A DNA stretch of 43,116 bases, from IMG/VR virus record IMGVR_UViG_3300010413_000124; one strand, given 5' to 3'. Both the position numbers and the translations under genes were made by a program. The notes beneath the pieces were generated by a model, which saw nothing but the letters and a program-made list of their open reading frames with translations, was not told where the DNA came from and ran no database searches. Positions 891 to 8,378 of this stretch are shown in pieces; positions within the stretch are counted from its first letter, which is position 1; each line of letters starts with the position of its first letter. This DNA is from a virus.

Positions 891-973
891 GCCCGAGTGG
901 CGGAATGGCAGACGCTAGGGATTTAAAATCCCTTGACCCTTGGGTCGTGTGGGTTCAACTCCCACCTCGGGTA
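891..973 (+). tRNA. tRNA-Leu (anticodon UAA)
   Basis: Cloverleaf by hand: acceptor GCCCGAG/CTCGGGT, D arm GCG..CGC, anticodon stem AGGGA/TCCCT with loop TTTAAAA (anticodon TAA), long variable arm, T arm GTGGG-TTCAACT-CCCAC, discriminator A. Confidence 0.8.
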
Positions 974-1580
974 CTCGATATCCAAAGAAATCGATGATTC
1001 TCTTGGCTCTTATCGCCACGATTTCTTTCATCTCTTCTGTGAGATGGTAGTCCCCATTTCGCTTGTTTGCCTTGCAATGCGGTAATGGTTCATGTGATAT
1101 ACCTAAAGTACCGCAGAGTCTCTGGTATTCTGCGGCCAGGTCTTCAAACCTGAGATAGGTACCATTCTTCAACCCGAAGGCTTCTTCTCCGATAAAGTAA
1201 TATCGCCAGCTGAAAGTGGCCCCGTAGCCAAATTCGCGTTGGAGCTTTACAGTTTTTGAGAAATCATATTCGCTGCAGGCTTGATCCCACGGATTTCTGA
1301 CAACAACGATTTTGAAATATTTTTCCCATATCTCCTTGCCGAATCTGGCTATGATGTCTTCTGGGAATATGTGGGCTCTGATACCATCAGCATTTCTAGG
1401 TCGGTGTGCCTGTATTTTGGCAAAGTCTGGGTTGTGCTGCGACAATCTTCGTTTTTCCAGTTTGATATCCGTAATTATATCGTCTGGTCCGCATTGTCTG
1501 GCCAGATTTATTTGCAAGGACGTGCTAGCGGTCTTTTGTGCTCTGATGAATATAAATCTGTGCTTATGTGATATGATCAT
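915..1580 (-). CDS. sulfotransferase-family protein
   Basis: 5'-PSB-like RAQKTASTS and 3'-PB-like VVRNPWDQACSEY motifs. The last ~20 codons (915-973) are antisense of the tRNA-Leu gene. Confidence 0.55.
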   Translation of the reverse strand: MIISHKHRFIFIRAQKTASTSLQINLARQCGPDDIITDIKLEKRRLSQHNPDFAKIQAHRPRNADGIRAHIFPEDIIARFGKEIWEKYFKIVVVRNPWDQACSEYDFSKTVKLQREFGYGATFSWRYYFIGEEAFGLKNGTYLRFEDLAAEYQRLCGTLGISHEPLPHCKANKRNGDYHLTEEMKEIVAIRAKRIIDFFGYRVPEVGVEPTRPKGQGILNP

Positions 1581-1609
1581 ATCTTAGGTTTACGGAATTC
1601 AAAATTGAT

Positions 1610-2047
1610 GTGATGGATCACAAAATCAGCGTAAAACAGTATCTCCCTAAGATACGACATCATTGCAAGGTGGCAAAACGCCATGAATTGGCAGTTCGTA
1701 GAGTCAAGAGCGACAAGAAACGGCGGCGGCATGTCAATAAGGCGAGAAGACATAGAAGAATCTGTGCTATTCTAGCCCATATCTGGACAGCCCAATGTGC
1801 TTGGAATCGGCAACATTGGGATTTTGTCATGGATAAGATGTACGGACCATTACCAGATGTACCAATTATGATTGAACGAACCAATTATTATGTGGTCACC
1901 TGCTGGAGAGACGGCAGACTCATATCGGAGACCAAGTTCGCCGACCCGGAAGAGTCTCTGCAGTTCTTTCACTCTGCGATGCTTGATCCGGAGTACTCCC
2001 GAGTGGATCGCTGCTATATAGAAATAGAGCATTGGGAATCTGCCTGA
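1610..2047 (+). CDS. hypothetical protein; very basic N-terminal third, possible true start near ATG ~1829
   Basis: ORF track only; the N-terminal 70 aa are K/R/H-rich and may be a spurious extension. Confidence 0.35.
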   Translation: MMDHKISVKQYLPKIRHHCKVAKRHELAVRRVKSDKKRRRHVNKARRHRRICAILAHIWTAQCAWNRQHWDFVMDKMYGPLPDVPIMIERTNYYVVTCWRDGRLISETKFADPEESLQFFHSAMLDPEYSRVDRCYIEIEHWESA

Positions 2048-2051
2048 TGTA

Positions 2052-2600
2052 TTAGCATTTGGCAGCTGAGTATTTTCTGGCTGCCATCAACAAGATCTCA
2101 ACAAATGAATGCCCAGTTTTGGCGCTCACTTCTTGGATCGCCGTTTTCAGTTGATCCGGGATCATTAACTTTAATGGTCGTCGTTTCGATTTTGGTTGCA
2201 GTTCCAGTTGTTCGACTATTGGTATTAGTTCCATGAGTGCATCGTGGCGTACCATATCGAAGCCACCTAACCTGCGTATCAAGTCATGATCCTCTGGCTT
2301 CAGCCGAACCGTTAGAGACATACGGTGACCACGATAGGCGAGCCGTTGCCGTCGTGGCTTTTCAGGAGAATAAGCTTTGTCTGGGCAACATATTGCCAGG
2401 CACACGTGGCAGAGCGGGTATCCCTGCAATTGTTTGCCGTCTGCAAATTCATCCAATTCTTTTTGGTCCAGTTCGGCAGAATGTGTGCCGGTTCGTTTGG
2501 CCAAGCGGGCTTGAACGTCTTTGCCGCGATTACATAAACTGGACCGATGCTCCCAAATGTGCCACACCCCATTTTCCAGTCGTCGCAATTTGTGTTTCAT
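2052..2600 (-). CDS. putative DNA-binding protein: Cys-rich N-terminal region plus two ribbon-helix-helix-like motifs
   Basis: AAGGAG Shine-Dalgarno 7 nt upstream of the minus-strand ATG (2600). RHH-like segments MSLTVRLKPEDHDLIRRL and LMIPDQLKTAIQEVSAKTGHSFVEIL. Confidence 0.45.
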   Translation of the reverse strand: MKHKLRRLENGVWHIWEHRSSLCNRGKDVQARLAKRTGTHSAELDQKELDEFADGKQLQGYPLCHVCLAICCPDKAYSPEKPRRQRLAYRGHRMSLTVRLKPEDHDLIRRLGGFDMVRHDALMELIPIVEQLELQPKSKRRPLKLMIPDQLKTAIQEVSAKTGHSFVEILLMAARKYSAAKC

Positions 2601-2749
2601 ATTAGTCTCCTTAGGGAATTGATTAGGTTATTTTATACATCTCTCGCTTTTGTTGCAAGTGAAAAACGTCAGTTAACAATATACTATTATTAACGAATTT
2701 GAATGTATTGCCACAAAATAGGGTCAATTCACCCCTAGGAGGCAAACAA

Positions 2750-6631: not shown

Positions 6632-6643
6632 TTTCCCAAGTGG

Positions 6644-6704
6644 AAAGAGCCCGGTTACGCCGGGCTCTTTCTGTATTTCCGAGGGCCTTCGACAGAGAAG
6701 GCCC
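6644..6704 (+). terminator. rho-independent terminator (11-bp GC stem plus T-rich tail) followed by a second 8-bp hairpin
   Basis: AAAGAGCCCGG-ttacg-CCGGGCTCTTT then CTGTATTTCC; second hairpin GGGCCTTC-gacaga-GAAGGCCC. Confidence 0.65.
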
Positions 6705-6782
6705 CAGTGGTAAATGATAGTGGCTAGAACGTCAGGGAATCAAAACGGAAGCCTCGGAAGTATCTAAAAGCAGGAGGCGATT

Positions 6783-7082
6783 ATGGAAAAACCAAGATAC
6801 TGTGGCGAATGTGGTGGCCAATATTTCTTCCCGAAGGCTGGATGTACTGCCTGGGTTTGTTATGCCTGTGGCTGTACAGAAACCGAAAATGGGTCAATTC
6901 CGCGTTCACCTGTGAATTGTGAGGAATTATTGCGGAAGTATATCTTATATGTCCAAATGGTTGAGGGTGAAACATTCATCCCTGAAGATACAAATGATTC
7001 TTTCCGATATGCACATAATCCATTCTCGGAAGCAGAATTAGCCAAATTACACGAATTACTGCCTCGGAACCAGCAAATATAG
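6783..7082 (+). CDS. small zinc-ribbon protein (CxxC...CxxC)
   Basis: AGGAGG 7 nt upstream; CGECGG...CYACGC. Confidence 0.55.
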   Translation: MEKPRYCGECGGQYFFPKAGCTAWVCYACGCTETENGSIPRSPVNCEELLRKYILYVQMVEGETFIPEDTNDSFRYAHNPFSEAELAKLHELLPRNQQI

Positions 7083-7101
7083 TATAAATAAGGACAATAT
7101 T

Positions 7102-7527
7102 ATGCGGCTCCGAACAATCACCGAAGAACAGAAGCACGGTTTCGTTGGCGATATCGAGGGTCTCACCGAAAAAAACTCAGACTTTCGCCAAGTTCTCTAT
7201 ACCGGTGAAAACGTGCAGCTAGTGGTGATGACGCTCGCCCCCGGCGAGGATATCGGAGCCGAAACACACCCCGACGTAGACCAGTTCTTCCGCGTCGAAG
7301 CGGGCGGTGGGGAAGTGACTATCAACGGAGAAACTACTCCTATCAAGGTTGGAACTGGCATTGTTATTCCAGCTGGATCTAAACATAACGTCAAGAATAC
7401 CGGCGAAGAGCCTCTGCGGGTCTATACACTCTACGCGCCGCCCCATCACGCGGACGGTACAGTACATAAAACAAAGAAAGATGCCCAAGCAGATACCGAA
7501 GAATTTACTGGCGATACTAGCGAATGA
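7102..7527 (+). CDS. cupin-domain protein
   Basis: Cupin motifs G(x)5HxH...E...G and PxGxxHxxxN: ETHPDVDQFFRVEAGGGEV ... PAGSKHNVKNTGEEPLRVYTLYAPP. Confidence 0.6.
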   Translation: MRLRTITEEQKHGFVGDIEGLTEKNSDFRQVLYTGENVQLVVMTLAPGEDIGAETHPDVDQFFRVEAGGGEVTINGETTPIKVGTGIVIPAGSKHNVKNTGEEPLRVYTLYAPPHHADGTVHKTKKDAQADTEEFTGDTSE

Positions 7528-8378
7528 CATATGACCATTGCAAGGTTTGCCCGTGCAAAGTCTGCCCTGGCAAAGAACCCATCTTTTGGCAGAAAGAATG
7601 GTCACTCGACTATCAGTACTCTAGGCAACTAGAATCTACAAAAACACCTTGTTGGATACTATGTTACCCAAGAACTGGTTCCAATTATCTCTGTTGGTGT
7701 TTCAATCTAACGGCCAATTTTGTACCGTGTTTTGCGGAGTGGTTCAACCCACCGGTTGATCATCGGCCCCCGGATGATTGTTGTCATCTATATGTGCCGT
7801 GGAAGTTATGGTCCACGATCAAGCCAACCGATGTAGTATATCACGAAAAAGTTGAACCACTCCTCGATCGCTTGCCTCCGTACCTGAAAGTGCATTGTTG
7901 TGATTATCACTGTTTCTTCAAGCCGGAACACTACGAGCAGATTATACAAAAACTACCGGGCATAAAGTTTATTCGTTTGCGACGGCGAGATTTGATTGCG
8001 TGCACGGCGTCCTATTATCTGGCCCAAAAAACCAAGATTTTTTCGGCTACGAAGTCCGAAACTGTTGCCGAACAAGCGAGTATTCGCGTCGAAATAGATG
8101 AAAGCTTGTTGTTGCAATATTTTGAGTGGATGGTCGATTGGGACGCCTACTGGGAATATTTTCTGCCAGACAACAATTATCTAGAGATTTTTTACGAAGA
8201 CCTAGTAACCGATCCGAAAGTTGCCCAAACGGCTTGCGAATACATCGGATTTCCGGCAGACCATCTAGAAGGTCGCTTCTCCGATATCAAAGAGAAGAAA
8301 CTCCAACACCCGCAGACGCCGGAATTAATAGAGACCCTAAAGAATAATTTGAAACAACTCGATAATCTGCGAATGTGA
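7524..8378 (+). CDS. sulfotransferase (Stf0-like family)
   Basis: PAPS 5'-PSB motif CYPRTGSNYL and 3'-PB motif RLRRRDLIACTASYY. ATGA overlap with the cupin gene. Confidence 0.6.
   Translation: MTYDHCKVCPCKVCPGKEPIFWQKEWSLDYQYSRQLESTKTPCWILCYPRTGSNYLCWCFNLTANFVPCFAEWFNPPVDHRPPDDCCHLYVPWKLWSTIKPTDVVYHEKVEPLLDRLPPYLKVHCCDYHCFFKPEHYEQIIQKLPGIKFIRLRRRDLIACTASYYLAQKTKIFSATKSETVAEQASIRVEIDESLLLQYFEWMVDWDAYWEYFLPDNNYLEIFYEDLVTDPKVAQTACEYIGFPADHLEGRFSDIKEKKLQHPQTPELIETLKNNLKQLDNLRM

Follow-up and report, generated by a model that had tools for sequence, protein, structure and literature searches.

What might a phage sulfate, and would two sulfotransferase genes and several sugar-modifying genes on one viral contig serve a common product? 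This is the question raised by IMGVR_UViG_3300010413_000124. The DNA studied (hereafter the window) is this entire 43,116-bp metagenome contig, so no flanking host DNA is included. The contig is part of an uncultured tailed phage genome: it encodes a virion structural protein (phrog_1645, 5.9e-62; T4-like cyanophages at 33% identity), two tRNAs and mainly ORFs that lack annotation, which bears out its earlier description as phage-like. By this one virion protein, the phage appears to be distantly T4-cyanophage-like. One of the tRNAs, tRNA-Leu(TAA) (891..974, plus strand; ARAGORN), is given here for context only, outside the enzyme set. The combination of a sulfotransferase with a sugar-modifying toolkit has a precedent in some large phages, and the reading that we somewhat favor is that two PAPS-dependent sulfotransferases, together with scattered accessory enzymes, tailor a glycan, the likeliest being a host envelope precursor.

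The first sulfotransferase, ST1 (915..1580, minus strand, 221 aa), is an intact member of the Sulfotransfer_2 family (PF03567; 26.3 bits, cut-off 22) and matches phrog_3347, 'Galactose-3-O-sulfotransferase' (5e-9). Nearly all of its 123 homologues carry PF03567, and searches of PDB sequences with the ST1 profile returned mostly sulfotransferases. In an alignment of 30 sequences, Lys16, Arg95, Asn96, Asp99, and Ser103 are invariant, and Thr17, Ala18, Ser21, and Pro97 nearly so; these residues make up the 5'-PSB 'KTASTS' and 3'-PB 'RNPWDxxxS' motifs. The conserved domain stops around residue 205-210, and the last ~20 codons cross the tRNA-Leu in antisense, with a C-terminal peptide (..VGVEPTRPKGQGILNP) that lies outside the homologue alignments. 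A direct tblastn search with ST1 gave no match at 1e-3 in 50,697 phage records, which indicates a divergent member of its family; ORF232, the sulfotransferase of Ralstonia phage phiRSL1, is 26% identical to it over 238 aa. Judging from its conserved residues, ST1 looks catalytically intact and would use PAPS.

The second sulfotransferase, ST2 (7524..8378, plus strand, 284 aa), is a rare, Stf0/NodH-like PAPS-type enzyme, which scores above the Pfam cut-offs for both Sulfotransfer_3 (32.7 bits, cut-off 27) and Sulfotransfer_1 (25.6 bits, cut-off 22). The segments 'PRTGSNYL' and IRLRRR..S are conserved among its homologues, and 'IKFIRLRR..I....SYYLA' is invariant, while the N-terminal ~27 residues form a Cys-rich extension that the homologues do not have. 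The AF2 model of ST2 is of moderate confidence only (pTM 0.69, pLDDT 64.7). Its Foldseek matches are all sulfotransferases, with Stf0 (1tex, 6e-5) the best, followed by 3rnl, TPST2, and HS 3-OST, and the sugar sulfotransferases fit the model only slightly better than a tyrosylprotein sulfotransferase does. The ST2 profile likewise found mostly sulfotransferases among PDB sequences, touching NodH (9vki) at E=0.16. Only 5 homologues were found among 5.8 billion cluster representatives (a clade of about six known members), and no relatives were found in IMG/VR, GenBank phages, or GTDB genomes. One homologue has been named 'LPS sulfotransferase NodH' by a JGI source, and faint precomputed matches to PF09037 and PF13469 accompany the homologues. 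ST2 as an orthologue of Stf0 was rejected, because the NCBIfam Stf0 equivalog gave 12.4 bits against a cut-off of 400. From its motifs and predicted fold, ST2 also looks catalytically intact, with PAPS as the probable donor. The first-pass annotation had called both proteins sulfotransferases with PAPS-binding motifs, and this is upheld by Pfam scores above the curated cut-offs and by the kept motifs in each, as well as by the model matches of ST2.

ST1 and ST2 come from different families and are not paralogues: their profiles align around the 3'-PB region only (hhalign probability 1%). Since the flanks of ST1 are also not conserved between the window and a relative (contig L001), the two genes were probably acquired separately.

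ST2 is coupled to a small, metal-binding cupin resembling the C-terminus of PMI (7102..7527, plus strand, 141 aa). The stop codon of the cupin and the start codon of ST2 overlap (ATGA), as expected of translational coupling. The cupin, as first named, is well supported (Cupin_2, 67.6 bits; MannoseP_isomer, 25.8 bits, cut-off 23.6; phrog_13536, 1.5e-30), and its motif 2 (G-x5-P-x-G-x2-H-x3-N) is intact. A homologue (54%) is present in L001.

The remaining enzymes fared unevenly. Four glycosyltransferases had been proposed, and three of these calls fail or stay under the profile thresholds. The exception is the protein at 27457..28260 (plus strand, 267 aa), which is a real glycosyltransferase of the GT-B fold (GT4-like) according to its AF2 model (pLDDT 92.3, pTM 0.90): its top Foldseek matches are GT4 enzymes (7qsg, SdgB, PimA, SenB, and TarM; E ~1e-7). 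It also matches the phrog_7162 glycosyltransferase (2.6e-5), and a few of its 122 homologues carry fused GT2 or Methyltransf_24 domains. The gene is kept in L092, a syntenic relative of the window. The possible GT9-like protein (30686..31555, plus strand, 289 aa) has no match in Pfam, PHROG, NCBIfam, or PDB, nor does its family profile in PDB; one of 9 members examined in this family of only 11 matches Glyco_transf_9 (2.3e-5), which hints weakly at such a role. In L092, the homologues of the genes at 30017 and 31534 have no such gene between them, so it is a variable accessory gene (an insertion). A similarly weak GT-A-like assignment applies to the protein at 40284..40949 (plus strand, 221 aa), with a 'VEDD' motif, a Glycos_transf_2 score of 18.3 bits (under the 23.3 cut-off), a TIGR04440 match at E=0.035, and no relatives in phages, IMG/VR, or PDB. 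The ORF at 21042..21746 (plus strand), earlier called GT-A-like, is unsupported, as Pfam, PHROGs, NCBIfam, and PDB gave no match; tblastn gave one marginal match, to an unannotated 635-kb uncultured phage.

The class I SAM methyltransferase (36704..37366, plus strand) stands as first called: it is of the Methyltransf_24 type (PF13578, 27.9 bits, cut-off 26.3; phrog_21658, 3.7e-23), and L001 and two further relatives (L002 and L003) have a 35% homologue of it at a distance of two genes from their ST1 homologue. The protein at 25389..26132 (plus strand), earlier labeled ANT-like, is a pol-beta-superfamily nucleotidyltransferase-domain protein (NTP_transf_2, 24 bits, cut-off 21; phrog_36119 of unknown function, 5.4e-52), but the results do not extend to the narrower ANT-like label. 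Homologues occur in L001 (47%) and L092 (72%), and no evidence ties this gene to the sulfotransferases. The enzyme genes are dispersed over 40 kb on both strands, and 13-39 kb separate the candidate partners from the two sulfotransferase genes, on a contig covering only part of the genome; they are scattered and form no single module or operon. Genes for PAPS synthesis, nucleotide-sugar synthesis, a flippase, or a polymerase were not found among the scanned ORFs of the 43-kb contig.

The neighborhoods of relatives offer clues to what the scattered genes may do. Sulfotransferases have already been annotated in cultured phages (PMC10580990), and members of the ST1 family occur on no fewer than 284 IMG/VR contigs and in 50 GenBank phage records, usually within islands of sugar-nucleotide, glycosyltransferase, and methyltransferase genes. 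Thus, the earlier view that sulfotransferases are unusual in phages holds for the ST2 clade but goes too far for the ST1 family; the ST1 branch is common in large aquatic phages and the ST2 branch very rare. Within 6 kb of ST1-family genes at 77 of the IMG/VR loci examined are NAD epimerase/dehydratase (18 loci), CTP-transferase-PMI cupin fusions (15), Capsule_synth (15), UDP-glucose dehydrogenase (8), and Methyltransf_24/TylF (7) genes; these relatives are only 25-33% identical to the window ST1, so their substrate may differ. In the cultured Synechococcus phage ACG-2014f, the order is aminotransferase-GT-MT-GT-...-epimerase-sulfotransferase-GT, and in phiRSL1, by product names that are automated annotations, it is APS kinase-GT-NDP-sugar pyrophosphorylase-NTase-GT-GT-sulfotransferase. 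For each ST2 relative, the next gene is GT32-like, and methyltransferase, GT1, and Sulfotransfer_2 genes are close by. These GT32 genes are 76-80% identical and belong to one lineage, so that the adjacency amounts to about one independent observation; the GT32 gene was not found in the window. A sulfated, methylated glycoconjugate, as first suggested, is thus reasonable, since both sulfotransferases, the cupin, the methyltransferase, and at least one glycosyltransferase are real and relatives of each part lie in glycan-type settings, but the failure of three glycosyltransferase calls, the scattering of the genes, and the absence of the GT9-like gene from L092 count against the fuller version.

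According to the preferred reading, ST1 and ST2 would be active in the cytoplasm of the infected cell, where host-made PAPS would be the source of the sulfuryl group, and would use it for O-sulfation of the hydroxyls on sugars in a glycan or glycolipid intermediate. The GT-B enzyme, the Methyltransf_24 methyltransferase, and possibly the two weak glycosyltransferase candidates would act on such a glycan too. Gene integrity, families, folds, conserved motifs, and the relatives' neighborhoods are direct results; we infer PAPS use and the biological target, as well as, by association with the relatives' neighborhoods and the window GT-B, a sugar acceptor. The likeliest acceptor would be a precursor of a polysaccharide of the host envelope (LPS, EPS, or capsule), with a virion glycan second.

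That second acceptor leads to a rather unlikely alternative, in which the sulfotransferases, GT-B, and methyltransferase would make a methylated, sulfated glycan on capsid, tail, or fiber proteins, much as mycobacteriophages glycosylate their virions; this glycan would serve for adhesion or as a charged shield. On an 85.6-kb phage scaffold (L093), the portal, AAA, and major-capsid genes are immediately followed by a GT2-Methyltransf_24-GT-B-GT2 cassette whose GT-B is a relative (33%) of the window enzyme, an order repeated on an 8.3-kb contig (L094), and the protein-glycosylating SdgB and GtfA are among the top structural matches of the GT-B. Phage glycosyltransferases are established as virion glycosylators (Freeman 2023, cited in PMC12619734). 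However, in the window and L092 the GT-B gene has replication-type neighbors (nuclease and AAA+ genes) rather than structural ones, and a sulfated virion glycan was not found in the literature surveyed. A beta-helix protein (8379-9395) that is convergent to ST2 and abuts it may be fiber- or spike-like, which would favor this alternative, but its assignment scores 18 bits, below the 25.9 cut-off. The same replication-type flanks would suit a DNA-linked glycan, where hydroxymethylated bases are glycosylated and the DNA-bound sugar is modified by a sulfotransferase so that restriction is evaded. The phiRSL1 run, with its APS kinase, three glycosyltransferases, and NDP-sugar pyrophosphorylase, includes a thymidylate-synthase-family gene (again an automated product name), and viral glycosyltransferases make diverse DNA glycans (Pyle 2024, cited in PMC12619734). 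We regard this as very improbable: the 43-kb window has no thymidylate-synthase-like or hydroxymethylase gene, the GT-B model fits GT4 enzymes rather than T4 alpha- or beta-glucosyltransferase, and a sulfated DNA base was not found in the literature surveyed.

There are two further alternatives. ST1, ST2, or both might sulfate a soluble metabolite, for example trehalose, a signaling lipo-oligosaccharide, or a toxin, or act as a PAPS sink redirecting host sulfur metabolism. Stf0, the closest solved structure to ST2, sulfates free trehalose, no glycosyltransferase adjoins ST1 or ST2 in the window, and authors of phage genomes have called phage sulfotransferase function unclear (PMC10580990); yet ST2 falls far below the Stf0 equivalog cut-off and polysaccharide-type genes dominate the relatives' neighborhoods, which makes such a role improbable. 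The coupling of ST2 to the cupin would alternatively fit hydroxylation of a collagen-like or fiber protein by the cupin, followed by sulfation of the new hydroxyl by ST2, as proposed for bacterial dioxygenase-sulfotransferase operons that also encode collagen-like/tail-collar proteins (Iyer et al., 2010; PMC2938197). One protein encoded on the contig (14309-16066) is trypsin-like and contains collagen repeats, and TPST2 is among the structural matches of ST2. On the other hand, the 141-aa, Cupin_2/PMI-like cupin has no 2OG-Fe(II) oxygenase, JmjC, or PhyH match among Pfam and NCBIfam profiles, ST2 was not found with the L001 cupin in the 12.5 kb covered of L001, and the partner of the ST2 relatives is a glycosyltransferase rather than a dioxygenase. 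Such a pathway is hence quite doubtful.

Among known systems, mycobacterial trehalose 2-sulfotransferase (Stf0) and the Nod-factor/LPS sulfotransferase NodH (PF09037/PF13469) share with ST2 an Arg-type 5'-PSB loop (PRTGS) and the RLRRR..S 3'-PB region. Identity between ST2 and Stf0 is 11-13% in the structural alignment (TM ~0.4-0.5), and unlike Stf0 and NodH, ST2 has its unique Cys-rich extension and a coupled cupin. The window resembles the operons of Iyer et al. (2010) in coupling a double-stranded beta-helix protein to a sulfotransferase, with a collagen-repeat protein on the same element, but the partner in those operons is a dioxygenase, a type that no profile assigns to the window cupin. 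The mycobacteriophage virion-glycosylation cassettes (Freeman 2023) and L093 are also close, L093 sharing the GT-B family and the methyltransferase Pfam family; its cassette has no sulfotransferase, and in the window the GT-B and methyltransferase are 8 kb apart and away from capsid genes. In the large phages ACG-2014f, phiRSL1, and DLP_6, the sulfotransferase lies inside a contiguous nucleotide-sugar island (with an APS kinase as well in phiRSL1), whereas ST1 is a lone minus-strand gene beside a tRNA. Nevertheless, ST1 shares its Pfam family and PHROG 3347 with ACG-2014f gp234, phiRSL1 ORF232, and the gene of Stenotrophomonas phage DLP_6, all of which are phage-borne and accompanied by glycosyltransferase and methyltransferase genes.

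Two genes of the contig encode predicted PAPS-dependent sulfotransferases, each with both PAPS-binding motifs, and the first-pass annotation of the pair holds for both. For ST1 (915-1580, minus strand; 221 aa), the Pfam Sulfotransfer_2 score is 26.3 bits (PF03567; gathering threshold 22), phrog_3347 also matches (5e-9), and almost all of the 123 homologues found in a database search carry a precomputed PF03567 assignment. In an alignment of 30 sequences, Lys16, Arg95, Asn96, Asp99, and Ser103 are invariant, while Thr17, Ala18, Ser21, Pro97, and His70 are nearly so. Judged from the alignment, these conserved positions represent the 5'-phosphosulfate loop ("QKTASTS") and the 3'-phosphate motif that characterize such sulfotransferases. 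The best matches of the ST1 profile among PDB sequences are also sulfotransferases (E-values from 0.0024). The final 60 nt of the ORF run antisense through a tRNA-Leu(TAA) gene on the opposite strand (891-974, plus strand), and the terminal residues (..VGVEPTRPKGQGILNP), which are an antisense translation of that tRNA, are unconserved among homologues. Because homology stops at approximately residue 205-210, this tail is read-through and not a domain.

ST2 (7524-8378, plus strand; 284 aa) exceeds the cut-offs of both Sulfotransfer_3 (PF13469; 32.7 bits against a gathering threshold of 27) and Sulfotransfer_1 (25.6 bits against 22). Conservation of its PAPS loop, "PRTGSNYL", extends to every homologue that spans the N-terminus; the stretch "IKFIRLRR..I....SYYLA" is invariant among its few homologues, as are Arg151, Arg153, Arg154, and Ser163 of the 3'-phosphate-binding motif. 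The long reading frame that had been proposed is the correct one, as the 194-aa JGI gene call starts downstream of the PAPS loop. The AlphaFold model of ST2, built on a shallow alignment, is of moderate quality (pLDDT 64.7, pTM 0.69), and its top 33 matches in the PDB are all sulfotransferases, including Stf0 (6e-5), 3rnl, TPST2, and the heparan sulfate 3-OSTs. The modeled fold thus appears to resemble Stf0. Orthology with the Stf0 trehalose 2-sulfotransferase was rejected, since the NCBIfam equivalog NF047724 returns 12.4 bits (E = 0.07) where 400 are needed. Paralogy of ST1 and ST2 was likewise rejected (hhalign probability 1%). Residues 1-27 of ST2 (7524-7604) form a cysteine-rich N-terminal extension (HCKVCPCKVCPGK) that is absent from all ST2 homologues; it could represent a zinc knuckle, or else the ORF may have been called too long at its 5' end.

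Sulfotransferases had been described as unusual in phages, which is overstated for ST1, a member of a family common in viruses, but appropriate for the rare ST2 clade. ST1 relatives are encoded by at least 284 IMG/VR contigs, with 127 copies across 77 of the retrieved loci. A representative of the ST1 family matches 50 GenBank phage records, several of them already annotated as sulfotransferases; 45 belong to Synechococcus phages (ACG-2014f-type among the matches listed), and the remainder to Ralstonia phage phiRSL1, Stenotrophomonas phage DLP_6, and two huge uncultured phages. Annotated sulfotransferases from phages and giant viruses are also present in BFVD, and both Synechococcus phage S-SRM01 and metagenomic viral genomes resembling OM43 phages have been recorded as carrying Sulfotransfer_3 genes of unclear function (PMC10580990). 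When ST1 and ST2 themselves were compared with 50,697 GenBank phage records (tblastn), no match was obtained. Only five ST2 homologues exist among 5.8 billion cluster representatives, a metagenome scan adds one further contig (2 kb), and none was found in IMG/VR, the GenBank phages, or 185,579 GTDB genomes. The ST1-type gene of the contig is divergent, and its ST2 gene joins a clade with very few known members.

The genes proposed to act with the sulfotransferases are of uneven standing. The cupin directly upstream of ST2 (7102-7527), whose stop codon overlaps the ST2 start (ATGA), was correctly recognized: it scores 67.6 bits on Cupin_2, exceeds the cut-off for the phosphomannose isomerase (PMI) C-terminal domain, and has an intact motif 2. 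Its matches are to Cupin_2, AraC_binding, and MannoseP_isomer in Pfam and to PMI-type and other non-2OG cupin models in NCBIfam; 2OG-Fe(II), JmjC, and PhyH dioxygenase profiles from the same two collections do not match it. The cupin and ST2 were rejected as a conserved pair, as the cupin occurs without ST2 in 12.5 kb of the metagenome relative L001 and the ST2 relatives lack the cupin; the pairing is found in this phage only. The methyltransferase at 36704 is a member of Methyltransf_24, and the protein at 25389 has a pol-beta nucleotidyltransferase domain (Pfam) and falls within a functionally unannotated family conserved in phages (PHROGs). Overlapping the methyltransferase stop codon is a 197-aa ORF (37356-37949, plus strand) that matches phrog_4786 "cysteine dioxygenase" (1.1e-30), a match without support from Pfam or the PDB; this ORF may encode another cupin-like enzyme, here coupled to the methyltransferase.

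Four glycosyltransferases (GTs) had also been proposed, of which one is supported, two are weak, and one is unsupported. The protein at 27457-28260 is supported by its predicted structure as a GT-B (GT4-like) glycosyltransferase: the model (pLDDT 92.3) shows a pair of Rossmann-like domains that match experimentally solved GT-B structures, with a Foldseek probability of 1.00 and TM-scores reaching 0.71 against PimA, SenB, and the mannosyltransferase 7qsg. Its best structural matches are of the GT-B/GT4 type (PimA, SenB, SdgB, TarM, and a mannosyltransferase). It has no match in Pfam, Glycos_transf_1 and Glyco_trans_1_4 included, and PF00534 is assigned to one of the 120 homologues listed. The GT9-like assignment of 30686-31555 is weak. 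Its family comprises 11 proteins, one of nine homologues matches Glyco_transf_9 (2.3e-5) and the protein itself does not, and the family profile retrieves no GT9 structure, or anything else, from the PDB. This gene is missing from the otherwise syntenic relative L092 and is thus a variable accessory gene. Similarly weak is the GT-A/GT2 call for 40284-40949, which scores 18.3 bits on Glycos_transf_2, under the gathering threshold of 23.3, has a sub-threshold match to TIGR04440, and contains a "VEDD" sequence noted by eye; its homologue collection yielded none. For 21042-21746, read earlier as a GT-A enzyme, nothing was found in Pfam, PHROGs, NCBIfam, or the PDB, and tblastn against phage records gave a single marginal match. 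The other three candidates had no match in that search, phmmer comparison of all four with PDB sequences returned nothing relevant, and IMG/VR scans with the 30686, 21042, and 40284 candidates found no relatives. Directly upstream of the GT-B gene (26117-27463, plus strand) lie an SNase-domain nuclease (26117-26677; 42 bits) and a 196-aa protein in which an HxK...GxN PLD-like motif is visible by eye; both are conserved in L092.

The window corresponds to an entire JGI metagenome contig of 43,116 bp; it has a GC content of approximately 48% and is densely coded, mainly on the plus strand. Its phage identity follows from a virion structural protein (19716-20966; phrog_1645, 5.9e-62) with 33% identity to that of the T4-like Synechococcus phages S-RIM8 and S-RIM12, an MgsA/clamp-loader-like AAA+ protein (28705-30126), a phrog_1297 ATPase (34432-35814), a DUF2201 metallopeptidase/VWA protein (41406-42737), and a trypsin-like protease with collagen repeats (14309-16066, plus strand). 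A tRNA-Met-CAT gene (35822-35897) is also present, and most other ORFs lack Pfam or PHROG matches. Genes for a terminase, major capsid protein, portal, or polymerase were not recognized in the window, which thus represents part of a larger genome. Megablast of the whole window against the 50,697 phage records found no nucleotide-level relative. Three partial metagenome relatives are available: L090, which is identical and derives from JGI sample 3300009509; L092, syntenic with 25.4-35.8 kb (57-82% protein identity); and L001, in which ST1, the cupin, the nucleotidyltransferase, and the methyltransferase have counterparts (35-54% identity). Proteins identical to those of the window also occur in Logan runs. 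Scanning 1-10200 for sigma-70 promoters and terminators defined no transcription units.

Several other genes were observed. Two genes upstream of the cupin and ST2, in an order also seen on L090, is the gene of a major-vault-protein-like product of 877 aa (3998-6631, plus strand), in which Pfam recognizes an MVP_shoulder domain (64.1 bits, cut-off 25) and, weakly, a Vault_3 repeat, and whose C-terminal part forms a long coiled coil; MVP homologues in viruses and bacteria have been reported in preprints (10.1101/2023.11.10.566534; 10.1101/872010). On the other side, a minus-strand block (8379-9986) converges on ST2, the stop codons abutting at 8378/8379. Its predicted products are a protein of 338 aa that weakly matches a right-handed beta-helix profile (18 bits, under the cut-off), one of 119 aa containing "GGNW" repeats, and one of 80 aa; the block may be a fiber or spike module. 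In the protease, a Trypsin_2 domain (89 bits) is joined to collagen-type Gly-X-Y repeats, for which phage tail-fiber PHROGs are further matches. Two adjacent small ORFs (16103-16402 and 16429-16809, both minus strand) are paralogous (54% identity over 74 aa). A 401-aa protein (23436-24641, plus strand) without a Pfam match has a phosphoribosyltransferase-like N-terminal half (NF006613, 2.6e-9; "VVDDSIYSG" motif) and an HAD-like "IDMDGII" motif in its C-terminal half.

The gene neighborhoods of relatives, taken together, favor sugar acceptors. Within 6 kb of ST1-family genes on IMG/VR contigs are found an unknown 311-aa family (24 loci), NAD epimerase/dehydratase (18 loci), a CTP-transferase fused to a PMI-type cupin (15 loci), Capsule_synth (15 loci), UDP-glucose dehydrogenase (8 loci), and Methyltransf_24/TylF (7 loci); look-alikes of T4-type replication genes (uvsX-, gp32-, and ribonucleotide-reductase-like, by eye) also recur. 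In L001, whose ST1 flanks share nothing conserved with those of the window, the distance from ST1 to a Methyltransf_24 gene is two genes. Each ST2 relative has a GT32-like gene directly 3'; methyltransferase, GT1, and Sulfotransfer_2 genes also lie close by. These GT32 genes are 76-80% identical and so represent one lineage, not several independent observations; they have no relative in the IMG/VR scan, and their more distant homologues reside on bacterial chromosomes. In the metagenome relatives L093 and L094, a relative of the window GT-B gene is part of a GT2-Methyltransf_24-GT-B-GT2 cassette right behind the portal and capsid genes. These data show that sulfotransferase, methyltransferase, glycosyltransferase, and cupin genes form a recurring phage toolkit. 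Hundreds of aquatic viral contigs carry such sulfotransferase genes beside sugar-nucleotide and glycosyltransferase genes.

The function somewhat favored here is that ST1 and ST2, acting in the cytoplasm with PAPS supplied by the host, would O-sulfate sugars within a glycan or glycolipid intermediate, with the GT-B enzyme and the methyltransferase working alongside them. The sulfated, methylated glycoconjugate of the first-pass annotation is a plausible product. The most likely target would be a host envelope polysaccharide precursor, followed by a virion glycan; glycan decoration of the virion, taken as an explanation in its own right, is unlikely. Sulfation adds a fixed negative charge. If the enzymes sulfate host envelope or virion glycans, the outcome would matter for receptor masking, superinfection exclusion, and the way sulfur is used during infection. 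At present the result is at the level of annotation and describes no new mechanism.

Other acceptors fare less well. That the enzymes sulfate a small molecule, or serve as a PAPS sink, is improbable. Hydroxylation and subsequent sulfation of a collagen-like or fiber protein has a precedent in dioxygenase-sulfotransferase operons (Iyer et al., 2010; PMC2938197), but there the partner is a dioxygenase, whereas that of ST2 is a non-2OG cupin, which weakens this already very doubtful explanation. Least probable of all is sulfation of a DNA-linked glycan, to which the phiRSL1 context is the only pointer. Equally speculative as protein sulfation is the proposal that ST2 and the cupin constitute a novel Stf0/NodH-like module, phage-borne and very rare, that would sulfate a phage-directed glycan (of the virion or of glycosylated DNA) with host PAPS, a polyanionic modification undescribed for any phage. 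Even so, the rare ST2-cupin pair is the sole feature that might merit follow-up.

Cultured phages carry neighborhoods that likewise favor sugar acceptors. In ACG-2014f the gene order is aminotransferase-GT-methyltransferase-GT-...-epimerase-sulfotransferase-GT. In the jumbo phage phiRSL1 (160456-171085) it is APS kinase-GT-NDP-sugar pyrophosphorylase-nucleotidyltransferase-GT-GT-sulfotransferase-hypothetical-thymidylate synthase family, a co-directional run that would fit a phage supplying its own PAPS and might also be connected with modified nucleotides. The window is not such a contiguous glycan island: none of the approximately 65 ORFs scanned was recognized as a PAPS-synthesis or nucleotide-sugar gene, and its candidate genes are spread across 40 kb on both strands. 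Whereas the islands are co-directional blocks, ST1 and ST2 have no GT or nucleotide-sugar neighbor and their candidate partners lie 13-39 kb away, giving a picture of independently acquired accessory genes rather than of a pathway cluster.
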